64,000 nt of DNA from positions 1 to 64,000 of the IMG/VR virus record IMGVR_UViG_3300025853_009406. One strand, 5' to 3'. The DNA is from a virus. Positions 59,329-64,000 of this stretch are shown here, in pieces. The position numbers and the translations under genes are program-made. Every line of letters begins with the position of its first letter. Position 1 is the stretch's first letter. The notes under the pieces were generated by a model. That model was not told where the DNA came from. It saw nothing but the letters and a program-made list of their open reading frames with translations, and ran no database searches.

Positions 59329-59510
59329 AGAAAAAAGGAGGGTTATTACACCCCCCTTTGTAGGTCTTTTCATGCACGCCACTTGCTCTTTAGAGAAGCA
59401 AGAAACTCATATTAGGGTCATATGACTCCACCACACATTTTTGAGAGAAATGAGAAACTCCAGGGGTCAATGACCATCCCGACCAGGATTTTTATAGACT
59501 CTCCATGTCT
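59329..59510 (-). ncRNA. Structured leader RNA, probably the manA RNA motif, ending in an intrinsic terminator
   Basis: Intergenic, upstream of the M6P isomerase gene, near tRNAs; duplicated GGTCA/GAGTCA..TGACC hairpins plus GAGTTTC..TTCTCT modules; AAAGGGGGGT..ACCCTCCTTTTTT terminator. Confidence 0.6.
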
Positions 59511-61903: not shown

Positions 61904-61932
61904 AATATAACATGCTTTCTTATTATTTATAA

Positions 61933-62133: not shown

Positions 62134-62225
62134 ATTTGATGGAGTAAGTGTGATATATCTCATAAGGATATAACAGTGACTTACCCTCTATCACTTTTAT
62201 ATATTACACCAGTTCTTGGATATTG

Positions 62226-62696
62226 TCAAGTCCAAAGGTTATGGTCATATTCCCAGTGGCAATTTGGACATAATGGCATTATGTTTTCCTTTGAGTTTAT
62301 AACACTAATCATAACTTCTTCACTAAAAGAAGATATTGGTTTTATGTGAGCAATTTCTATATGTTTATTATATCCACATTTAACACATTCGGTAAATCCA
62401 AGTTTTTTTCCAAATGCTCTTGCTCGTGTTCTTACCAAAGCAAATGCTGAGGACTTGTGATGTTTTTCATATATTGCTTCTTTAAGGGTCATATCTTTTA
62501 CTTCTCTATCTTTTAACCATATCAAATAGTGTTCTTTACAACGAGCACGATTTGCTGTTATTGCTTTTCCACAATCAATACATTTATGCTCTGGTTTTCT
62601 TTTAGGAACTTTTTTATTATTATAAGAAGCAGCACAACTTCTTCCACAAAATTTTGGATTTTTTGTTTCTACTTTACAAAACAAGCACTTATTCAT
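62226..62696 (-). CDS. Free-standing HNH homing endonuclease with N-terminal zinc-finger motifs
   Basis: CxxC/FCGRSC, CIDCG..RCKEH, CVKCG..IEIAHIKPI...ENIMPLCPNCHWEYD. Confidence 0.9.
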   Translation of the reverse strand: MNKCLFCKVETKNPKFCGRSCAASYNNKKVPKRKPEHKCIDCGKAITANRARCKEHYLIWLKDREVKDMTLKEAIYEKHHKSSAFALVRTRARAFGKKLGFTECVKCGYNKHIEIAHIKPISSFSEEVMISVINSKENIMPLCPNCHWEYDHNLWT

Positions 62697-62700
62697 AATG

Positions 62701-62739
62701 GAACCTTAAAGTTATTTTTATTTATAAACCTTAAGGTTC
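62701..62739 (-). promoter_or_regulatory. RBS-sequestering hairpin with late promoter in its loop
   Basis: GAACCTTAAGGTT / AACTTTAAGGTTC 13-bp stem (one G-U); TATAAATA at 62719-62726 in the loop; AAGG in the 3' arm just before ATG 62696. Confidence 0.8.
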
Positions 62740-62745
62740 AAAAAA

Positions 62746-63028
62746 CGTCTCAGGAGGGACTCGAACCCCCGACCAACTGCTTAGCTTACCACTACGGATT
62801 TCCCCGCCATTTCTGTTTGTGGTCTGGACTTTCTCTTTACCATATCCTAAAAGGACTTAGGCACTTCCCGTCAAGTCTCTACACCTTCATCTTACGATGC
62901 TTGGCTCGGGATTATCATAGTCTTAAGACTTTAGAGTTCCCCGAATTTGAGAAGTTACATTTATAAAGTTTCCCTTATAAAGCTCCTTTGTTAAAGGCAG
63001 ATGCTCTTTCCAACTGAGCTACTGAGAC
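62746..63028 (-). tRNA. trnR: tRNA-Arg(TCT), intron-split (exons 63028-62994 and 62784-62746)
   Basis: Spliced: GTCTCAGTAGCTCAGTTGGAAAGAGCATCTGCCTT^CTAAGCAGTTGGTCGGGGGTTCGAGTCCCTCCTGAGACG. Confidence 0.92.
62785..62993 (-). mobile_element. Group I (IC3-like) self-splicing intron, 209 nt, no ORF
   Basis: Core elements AAATTCGGGGAA (P), AATCCCGAGC (Q), GTAGAGACTTGACGGG (R), GAGAAAGTCC (S); exon CUU pairs with GAG; terminal G. Confidence 0.92.
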
Positions 63029-63114
63029 AAGAGACCTCCCTGTTTGTGCATCGTTGAGAGGCATGGGAGGGGTGAGACTTATACGAAGTGTGGACCTTCG
63101 CTGCTCATAAGACA

Positions 63115-63143
63115 ATCATACCAGTTAAAGATTTGATTGTCAA
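63115..63143 (-). promoter_or_regulatory. Sigma70-type promoter for the tRNA cluster
   Basis: TTGACA-N17-TATGAT. Confidence 0.7.
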
Positions 63144-63675: not shown

Positions 63676-63683
63676 TATAAATA
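63676..63683 (+). promoter_or_regulatory. T4-type late promoter
   Basis: TATAAATA upstream of the plus-strand ORF. Confidence 0.6.
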
Positions 63684-63706
63684 TTTTTATGGTAGAAAAT
63701 ATTTTT

Positions 63707-64000
63707 ATGACTTGGAAGTATAACAGTGAAGATTTTATAGAGTCCCCAAAGGGGATAGAAGGATTTGTTTATCTAATAACAAACTTAACCAATGATAGAA
63801 AATATATTGGAAAGAAATCTTTTTGGACAAGAAGAAAAGATAAAAAAACTGGTAGAAGAAAAACAAAAGAAAGTGATTGGAAAAATTATTTTGGTTCCTG
63901 CGATGAACTAAATGAAGATGTAAAACTTCTTGGTAAAGATATTTTTTTGAGGGAAATTCTTTATTTGTGCCCTCACAAAAAATCAATGTCTTACTATGAA
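63707..64000 (+). CDS. GIY-YIG (Seg-like) endonuclease, runs off the window end
   Basis: MTWKYNSEDF...GFVYLITNLTNDRKYIGKK...SDWKNYFGSCDEL; alternative ATG at 63689. Confidence 0.85.
   Translation, partial: MTWKYNSEDFIESPKGIEGFVYLITNLTNDRKYIGKKSFWTRRKDKKTGRRKTKESDWKNYFGSCDELNEDVKLLGKDIFLREILYLCPHKKSMSYYE

Follow-up and report, generated by a model that had tools for sequence, protein, structure and literature searches.

The DNA analysed here, a window of 64,000 nucleotides (nt), comprises the opening 64 kb of a viral record of 116.7 kb (IMG/VR record IMGVR_UViG_3300025853_009406), estimated to be 61% complete. Towards the end of the window, a gene for tRNA-Arg(UCU) is split by a group I intron that contains no open reading frame (ORF), and a free-standing gene for an HNH endonuclease follows on the same strand. 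The locus lies in the tRNA cluster of a T4-like cyanomyovirus and appears to hold two linked selfish elements. The best reading of the pair is collaborative homing, in which the HNH endonuclease would cut the uninterrupted anticodon arm of the common tRNA-Arg allele, here called type A (anticodon arm CTGCCTTCTAAGCAG), and the intron would act as a shield. Judging from the natural alleles compared below, we give this reading about an even chance of being correct.

The split tRNA-Arg gene and its HNH neighbour

The anatomy of the locus (split tRNA, intron, spacer hairpin and HNH ORF) is certain. Its features, in the direction of transcription, are as follows.

63115..63143, minus strand: sigma-70-like promoter (TTGACA, 17 nt, TATGAT, with TG), 11 of 12 consensus matches, by consensus match only
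63034..63070, minus strand: abiF-like RNA motif, 5 nt 5' of the tRNA-Arg gene (RF03085, 53.8 bits, gathering cut-off 37)
62994..63028, minus strand: 5' exon of tRNA-Arg(UCU), ending in C32 U33 U34 (ARAGORN with intron option)
62785..62993, minus strand: ORF-less group I intron, 209 nt (Rfam RF00028 and ARAGORN with intron option)
62746..62784, minus strand: 3' exon of tRNA-Arg(UCU) (ARAGORN with intron option)
62701..62739, minus strand: 13-bp hairpin (5' arm 62739-62727, loop 62726-62714, 3' arm 62713-62701)
62226..62696, minus strand: free-standing HNH endonuclease gene, ATG start, 156 amino acids (ORF and Pfam)
62201..62229, minus strand: outward-facing sigma-70-like promoter, 10 of 12 matches, by consensus match only
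62137..62195, minus strand: conserved element of ~60 nt (GATAGAGGGTAAG...CTTACTCCATCA), which marks the downstream edge of the HNH insertion

The spacer from the last base of the tRNA (62746) to the ATG (62696) measures 49 nt, the A of the ATG being the 50th base downstream. An earlier, sequence-only reading of this DNA had placed the HNH start 50 nt past an intron-split tRNA, taken the intron in tRNA-Arg to be without an ORF, and described a 13-bp hairpin that hides an AAGG ribosome site and carries TATAAATA in its loop. The first of these agrees with the ORF and ARAGORN coordinates, the second with the RF00028 match and ARAGORN, and the third with the folding of the spacer.

The intron matches RF00028 over the full length of the model (66.5 bits, gathering cut-off 50; match 62803-63004 on the minus strand, model positions 1-253). 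ARAGORN in its default setting missed the tRNA; with the intron option it returned tRNA-Arg(tct) with a 209-nt intron. The intron interrupts the anticodon between U34 and C35 and has G as its last base; the CUU at the end of the 5' exon faces a GAG guide, as read from the sequence. Removal of the intron restores a normal tRNA equal to the intron-less tRNA of locus L099, with whose allele the 5' exon is 100% identical; the 3' exon has an exact match in 24 viral contigs. By these signs the intron is of the self-splicing type and would be expected to splice. The mature tRNA is identical with and without the intron, both in L099 and the window and in L088, L097 and the intron-bearing L008; thus the intron is the sole difference within the gene between carriers and empty sites.

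Small ORF-less group I introns in the anticodon loop are found in tRNA-Leu(UAA) of cyanobacteria and plastids and in tRNA-Arg(CCU) and tRNA-Ile of proteobacteria. The insertion after U34 seen here is as in tRNA-Leu(UAA); the host gene, in contrast, is a phage tRNA-Arg(UCU), and it is linked to a free-standing HNH gene. The window intron is 88-92% identical to tRNA-Arg introns of other contigs and ~75% identical to introns in phage tRNA genes of the tRNA-Leu(UAA) type, with which it shares an identical 33-nt core. No isolate phage record carries this intron, and only two uncultured 735-kb records match the core, at 72%. Within the openly accessible literature, our search listed no paper that deals with a cyanophage tRNA gene holding a group I intron.

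The related introns of the tRNA-Leu(UAA) type were found in 33 of 51 loci (L222-L272), where tRNA genes in viral contigs are split after U34. Eight of the 33 have a different, full-length HNH family ~25 nt downstream, one has a full-length copy of another HNH type and six have short N-terminal pieces of it, and two have a third HNH type; in total, whole or fragmentary genes of other HNH families are present at 17 of the 33. In L232, L235, L242, L246, L260 and L266 the anticodon is UAA and the variable arm is short, which is odd for a leucine tRNA.

Distribution of the HNH gene and the intron

Relatives of the HNH protein were counted by tblastn at E <= 1e-3, other HNH families falling outside these counts. 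In all, 74 loci were found with the protein, and a pattern scan matched 80 stretches. There are 48 full-length genes and 26 partial ones, the latter comprising 24 decayed remnants, mostly the last 15-50 codons, and 2 genes cut by contig ends. With few exceptions, the gene or its remnant lies 45-58 nt downstream or 4-13 nt upstream of a tRNA-Arg(UCU) gene. Some 190 tRNA-Arg(UCU) alleles were tabulated, namely 120 listed with an uninterrupted type-A arm, 24 with the intron, 43 of a type B with another anticodon stem, and the two odd loci L027 and L028. The resulting counts by allele class are given below, together with those for the tRNA-Leu(UAA)-type intron; all of them ignore the shared descent of the cassette, which is a first point to be held against collaborative homing.

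Uninterrupted type-A junction: at least 120 contigs; with this HNH family, 0 among the matches listed
tRNA-Arg intron, window excluded: 24 contigs; with this HNH family, 22
Type-B anticodon arm, no intron: 43 contigs; with this HNH, 7 full genes and 9 remnants; without, 27
tRNA-Leu(UAA)-type intron: 33 contigs; with this HNH family, 0

Seventy-two of the 120 listed type-A loci leave at least 550 nt of room downstream, and the tRNA is followed by 70 distinct 25-mers, demonstrating that these loci are not one clone. Seen from the other side, an uninterrupted CTGCCTTCTAAGCAG is present in none of the 74 loci with a full or partial HNH gene. In complete counts, a gapped pattern that joins the uninterrupted arm to the HNH leader gave 0 hits in the viral_contigs collection and 0 in metagenome_contigs, as against 20 and 6, respectively, for the intron 3' end joined to the same leader. 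In L027 (2333-2453) and L028, an intact HNH gene stands beside a type-A-like tRNA-Arg gene that has no intron; its anticodon loop holds an insert of 44-45 nt, and it is probably either a dead gene or the remains of a collapsed intron.

At L089, the tRNA and its intron share 99.6% identity with L008 across 281 nt, as against 72-90% in the flanks, and the HNH block is cleanly missing. This single case is suggestive of a conversion of the intron only, primed by a break inside the tRNA.

The co-occurrence of HNH and intron that would follow from the sequence-only reading, in which this HNH cuts intron-less alleles and the ORF-less intron protects the resident copy, thus holds tightly for type A (none of the listed loci, from at least 120 contigs, as against 22 of 24 with the intron); elsewhere, the HNH gene also stands beside intron-less type-B genes, and the intron occurs without this HNH.

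Several further observations weigh against collaborative homing. L014 and L017 carry a 92-93% identical HNH gene 48 nt downstream of an intron-less type-B tRNA-Arg gene, which has the other anticodon stem. Beside an identical type-B arm the HNH gene is polymorphic, and the full genes there come from several clades; the model must therefore assume that type B is resistant and has spread with the HNH gene at the expense of type A. Two intron alleles are without this HNH, one with none (L089) and one with a different HNH-like ORF (L238), and the 33 tRNA-Leu(UAA)-type intron loci have no relative of it. Among the 120 listed type-A loci, 8 hold other HNH-type ORFs; given that other HNH families occupy tRNA slots, the slot may be simply permissive. 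Four metatranscriptome runs, available as contigs only and poor in mature tRNAs, yielded neither a spliced joint nor a transcript start. The type-B carriers, the HNH-less intron alleles and the tRNA-Leu relatives together are evidence against a strict, obligate pairing of HNH and intron.

In the metatranscriptome contigs, depth was ~3-4 over the HNH region and ~32 over the stretch that begins in the upstream ORF and reaches into the intron's 5' part, and carry-over of DNA might contribute to these values. L238 (1355-1771) has a third tRNA-Arg backbone (type C) with the intron, followed by an HNH-like ORF of 119 amino acids that scores 17.3 bits against Pfam HNH, below the cut-off. This ORF is preceded by its own 13-bp hairpin with TATAAATA in the loop, i.e. 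the same control design on an unrelated gene.

The alternative that survives best, which we nevertheless think somewhat unlikely, is that the HNH gene homes to the tRNA-Arg slot by way of a cut site other than the intron insertion site, and that the intron merely hitch-hikes. The cut might fall in the tRNA 3' end and trailer, in a generic tRNA feature such as the T-psi-C arm, or in the nearby spacer. The HNH insertion itself would then replace the site and render the donor immune, and the intron, being within ~100 nt, would be co-converted. Such a scheme accommodates the HNH polymorphism beside identical intron-less type-B arms, the two ranges of insertion distance and the use of tRNA-cluster slots by other HNH families. 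It also has precedents, in that SegB is described as recognising the T-psi-C motif of tRNA genes (PMC2330249) and MobE as driving the homing in trans of a neighbouring intron (PMC2790892). The difficulty lies in locating the target. The post-tRNA sequence of HNH-less alleles is diverse (the 70 distinct 25-mers of the 120 listed loci), so that there is no conserved target outside the tRNA, and a target wholly within the tRNA and away from the intron would be self-destructive, because the mature tRNAs of donor and empty allele are identical. The absent recombinant of type-A arm and HNH (0 of 120 listed; 0 versus 20 and 0 versus 6 in the gapped patterns) is left unexplained, as is the HNH-less intron of L089.

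Control of the HNH gene

The spacer hairpin has 13 pairs, including one G-U, and a predicted energy of -14.7 kcal/mol (z = -2.99), which 1 shuffle in 200 equals. Its loop contains TATAAATA at 62726-62719, and its 3' arm the AAGG ribosome site at 62707-62704, 7 nt 5' of the ATG. For comparison, the 75 nt 5' of the HNH start were taken from every locus with an intact N-terminus. These gave 17 distinct upstream variants from three HNH clades, which are 55-93% identical in protein to the window HNH. A hairpin is predicted in all 17 (-5.1 to -21.0 kcal/mol), its 3' arm always covers a purine-rich site 7-8 nt 5' of the ATG, and in the alignment of all 17 ATAAATA is invariant and stands equally far from the ATG. 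Across the 9 outer pairs that align well, pairing holds in 86.2% of cells, versus 22-60% when the partner is slid. Four of the outer pairs are changed on both sides, with a covariation score that 8 of 500 shuffles reached; the compared sequences being related, these paired changes lend the hairpin moderate backing. The hairpin goes with the HNH gene: it is present where the gene follows tRNA-Ile or a tRNA fragment (L030-L036), whereas HNH-less loci have none after their tRNA-Arg.

Among the genes of the contig are those for a gp55-type late sigma factor (phrog_234, E 4e-67, G000 101346-101819) and a sliding clamp (phrog_223, E 8.4e-87). ATAAATA lies 31-32 nt 5' of the scaffold, portal and sheath ORFs and 22 nt 5' of the HNH ORF, and the late-box consensus of this phage is NATAAATA, not strictly TATAAATA. 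In T4, the distance of the transcription start from the late box follows a rule. Applied to the spacer, this rule would put the late start at ~62713, which is the first base of the 3' arm, so that the late RNA would be without the 5' arm. T4-style late control of the HNH gene is well supported in silico, given that hairpin and ATAAATA recur in 17 of 17 variants and that the contig encodes a gp55-type sigma factor, and we consider it likely. At the sequence level, the T4-style hairpin and late-promoter design that the sequence-only reading had put forward is thus conserved across diverged copies, in a phage with the matching sigma factor.

A hairpin of this kind might also be something other than a translational gate, such as an element for tRNA 3' processing or stability, or a palindromic protein site (the operator of an autorepressor), with ATAAATA occurring fortuitously in AT-rich DNA. 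We regard this as unlikely. Two observations point that way and count against late control: TATAAATA occurs in the window at chance frequency (7 versus 6.49 expected), and the clade L038-L046 does without the hairpin while keeping the ATAAATA box. In addition, the hairpin directly follows the tRNA trailer UUUUUU, and autorepression at a late promoter is known for I-TevI (PMC2988022). What exceeds chance, then, is the conservation of the feature in relatives rather than the frequency of TATAAATA. Against these alternatives, the hairpin accompanies the HNH gene and not the tRNA; the box is the same in all 17 variants and persists even in the clade without a hairpin; and the 3' arm always holds the purine-rich site. 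The hairpin was also considered as a terminator, an idea rejected on the grounds that it is not terminator-like on either strand. As to an operator, the likeness between the hairpin and promoter and the proposed target, of a kind known for I-TevI, is unconvincing by eye.

Late-type boxes are frequent in the tRNA region. Another TATAAATA, at 61924-61931 on the minus strand, lies 8 nt 5' of the start (ATG at 61915) of a small ORF, phrog_8074, located after tRNA-Ala.

The HNH protein and its probable mobility

The window protein matches Pfam PF13391 (HNH_2; E 2.4e-8, 34.1 bits, cut-off 21) and PF01844 (HNH; E 1.2e-4, 22.6 bits, cut-off 21.4), and five PHROG HNH families match it. Two N-terminal Cys4-type modules are followed by a C-terminal HNH domain. 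No variation among 26 sequences was seen at C104, C107, H112, H117, N134, N138, C143, C146 and H147, all of which the window protein has, suggesting that they are the catalytic and zinc-binding residues. The AlphaFold model has a predicted local distance difference test score (pLDDT) of 91.3. In a Foldseek comparison with the Protein Data Bank (PDB), the best rows are HNH nucleases (4h9d at E 0.053, 6ghc, 8fmh), all of them weak matches and none at E <= 0.001; a sequence search of solved structures gave only a zinc-finger noise match at E 0.072. No close relative was found in isolate phage records, where the best match, in Erwinia phage Ep030, is 49.7% identical, and neither S-PM2 nor T4 is among the 20 phage records matched by tblastn at E <= 1e-5.

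The clade L038-L046 has another Cys-rich N-terminal half, while its C-terminal 271 nt are 85-93% identical to the window DNA; by this comparison it is a domain swap within the HNH family. Relative to the window copy, the ratio of nonsynonymous to synonymous substitution rates (dN/dS) is 0.044-0.111, at dS 0.51-0.89, and over 117 pairs of intact copies its median is 0.088 (dS ~0.7). On these ratios, the intact copies are under purifying selection.

The HNH gene shows presence/absence polymorphism. L099 is an empty site in which both exons are 100% identical to those of the window, 40 nt take the place of the HNH block, and the same ~60-nt element follows; L089 is likewise empty, with the exons and downstream element of carriers. 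The element is 93% identical in L099 and 96% in L089. Homology between the window and other carriers (87-88% identity) ends at ~63029-63120, by the tRNA or the abiF-like motif, on one side and at ~62133, by the ~60-nt element, on the other, beyond which the flanks are unrelated or rearranged. Relatives of 30-50% identity reside in tRNA clusters as well, between tRNA-Lys and tRNA-Ile in FelixO1, between tRNA-Gln and tRNA-Leu in Erwinia phage Ep030, and ~280 nt after tRNA-Asn in Synechococcus phage MA01. In L036 (1723-1741), a 19-nt 5' piece of another tRNA-Arg type is joined to the hairpin and HNH gene, and a complete tRNA-Arg gene follows; in L032, L034 and L035, a similar 20-nt piece (acceptor stem and D arm) lies 53-73 nt 5' of the HNH start. 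These fragments have the look of relics left by insertions that disrupted the 5' half of a resident tRNA-Arg gene.

Wherever a clade has its HNH gene downstream of the tRNA, a TTGACA encloses the stop codon and is followed after 17 nt by a -10-like box. This TTGACA is kept although spacers and downstream DNA differ, and in the window it faces the downstream element and tRNA-Gly. The arrangement resembles an outward promoter belonging to the cassette, a feature that several T4 seg and mob genes share according to a review of T4 (PMC2988022).

Empty sites, decay, unrelated flanks and purifying selection all bear out the earlier proposal that the HNH is a free-standing homing-type gene, which we consider very probable. 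That it should instead be a domesticated, non-homing nuclease serving the phage (in degradation of host or competitor DNA, or in recombination), placed next to tRNA-Arg by historical accident, is most improbable: strong purifying selection over deep synonymous divergence, a dedicated predicted late promoter and an outward promoter that would favour retention of the cassette for the sake of downstream genes might fit such a role, but the distribution is patchy with clean empty sites, 24 of 74 loci are reduced to decayed remnants (2 more being cut by contig ends), the gene abuts one tRNA species, on either side and with few exceptions, its N-terminal module has been swapped between clades, and the flanks are unrelated between carriers.

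A proposed model for homing

Under collaborative homing, events might run as follows. Early on, transcripts from a sigma-70-type promoter that lies upstream of the tRNA would read through the locus, and in this RNA the hairpin would bury AAGG so that no nuclease is made. The promoter at 63115..63143 is the likely source of this early RNA across the tRNA-Arg and HNH genes, as judged by its consensus match, and would start it near 63108; the region holds 10 sigma-70-like matches versus 9.0 in shuffles, which is not above shuffles. Late in infection, the gp55-type sigma factor would start an RNA at the ATAAATA of the loop (~62713), and this RNA, without the 5' arm, could be translated. In a mixed infection, the nuclease would cut uninterrupted type-A tRNA-Arg genes in or near the anticodon arm CTGCCTTCTAAGCAG, and repair would copy the donor intron, plus the HNH gene when homology allows. 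The donor would be immune because its intron splits the cut site, and in phages of type B and of other types, immunity would come from the sequence of their different anticodon stem. Four parts of the model are inferred: where the nuclease cuts, the immunity, the late start and the splicing.

More tentatively, and well short of even likelihood, the anticodon arm of phage tRNA-Arg(UCU) may be the ground of an arms race with one HNH family, to which the intron was recruited as a shield. An intron of the tRNA-Leu(UAA) type would have moved to the homologous CUU| site of tRNA-Arg(UCU) and been kept there by virtue of splitting the nuclease target. Other phages would have escaped through a swap of the anticodon stem (types B, C and others) or through a short insert that wrecks the gene, and the nuclease, with its own late and outward promoters, would spread whichever resistant allele is linked to it.

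Comparison with known systems

The F-CphI/psbA case of collaborative homing is credited in reviews to Zeng, Bonocora and Shub (2009). The sequence-only reading had named three precedents, I-TevI for control, SegB for mobilisation of a tRNA region, and F-CphI with the psbA intron for collaborative homing, and all three are borne out by the relevant papers (PMC3984707, PMC2988022, PMC2330249). The closest parallel is cyanophage S-PM2, where F-CphI and the ORF-less group I intron of psbA constitute a case of collaborative homing (PMC3984707, PMC3037559). S-PM2 is likewise a T4-like cyanophage; its target is psbA, whereas here it would be a tRNA gene, the nuclease here is a small HNH protein with Cys4 modules, and homing is deduced from sequence comparison. 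In contrast to the S-PM2 system, the natural alleles at the present locus display alternative states, namely intron, short insert and different stem.

The T4 MobE endonuclease, also a free-standing HNH protein, is reported to move the neighbouring nrdB intron (that of I-TevIII), which lacks a working nuclease (PMC2790892), and the HNH described here may do the same for its own neighbour. The target gene differs, and the intron here is without any ORF. T4 SegB cuts the tRNA genes of relatives and has a hairpin that occludes its translation start, as set out in the SegB paper (PMC2330249). It belongs to the GIY-YIG family rather than HNH, it recognises the T-psi-C motif of many tRNAs and involves no intron, and that paper reports no promoter near its 5' end (PMC2330249), whereas an ATAAATA box occupies the hairpin loop here. 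The same paper notes that homing endonuclease genes are rarely observed in phage tRNA clusters (PMC2330249).

A hairpin that sequesters the ribosome site, combined with a late promoter, is known for I-TevI, I-TevII, I-TevIII, segB and Aeh1 mobE (PMC2988022). For I-TevI, I-TevII, I-TevIII and Aeh1 mobE, the T4 review describes a ribosome site held in a hairpin on a long early or middle RNA, and a late RNA without the 5' arm (PMC2988022). The likeness extends to the gp55-type sigma factor, present here too, while the control proposed here is known from conservation of sequence alone. The gene here is free-standing and follows a tRNA, and its box is NATAAATA rather than strictly TATAAATA.

Source virus and neighbouring features

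Minus-strand ORFs number 119 out of 125. The record contains T4-type core genes for the major head protein, portal, sheath, UvsX, UvsY and gp46/47-like nuclease subunits, as well as for the clamp loader, sliding clamp, RegA-like repressor and gp55-type late sigma factor. Cyanophage auxiliary genes are also present (hli, ferredoxin, CpeT-like), and the nearest isolate matches of the tRNA region are Synechococcus phages. By its gene content, the source virus is an uncultured T4-like cyanomyovirus.

The abiF-like motif is placed between the sigma-70-like promoter and the first tRNA, and numerous viral contigs keep it 5' of tRNA-Arg(UCU), whether HNH and intron are present or not; it is a putative leader element of the tRNA-Arg slot. 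The ~60-nt element on the other side of the HNH gene precedes tRNA-Gly and could form a long hairpin. It matches no Rfam family and occurs also in the records of Synechococcus phages S-SRM01 and S-RIM8.

A SegE-like GIY-YIG ORF begins at 63689 on the plus strand, opposite to almost all genes, and runs past the window end (63689-64000) to 64411 in the record (L001:2387-3109; Pfam SegE_GIY-YIG, E 1e-31), with TATAAATA (63676-63683) just upstream. It looks independent of the HNH/intron pair, since parts of it are found in L081, which has neither intron nor HNH. A wcaG RNA motif (59368-59462, minus strand; 53.9 bits, gathering cut-off 42) lies 5' of an ORF in a block of sugar-modification genes.

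Significance

Phage tRNA genes thus harbour group I introns of the tRNA-Leu(UAA) type, a setting for which our literature search, within the sources it reached, returned no description. The alleles of tRNA-Arg(UCU) range from sensitive-looking empty sites through intron-protected, stem-swapped and insert-disrupted genes to decaying nuclease genes and one apparent intron-only conversion. With such a range at hand, short synthetic substrates would allow a direct test of where the nuclease cuts, of the immunity and of late-only expression. Collaborative homing is the proposed way for an ORF-less intron and a free-standing nuclease to become joined as a mobile intron, and at the time of a 2014 review it rested on work in two phages (PMC3984707). 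The present locus would add to it a case in a tRNA gene, with an unusually rich record of natural alleles.

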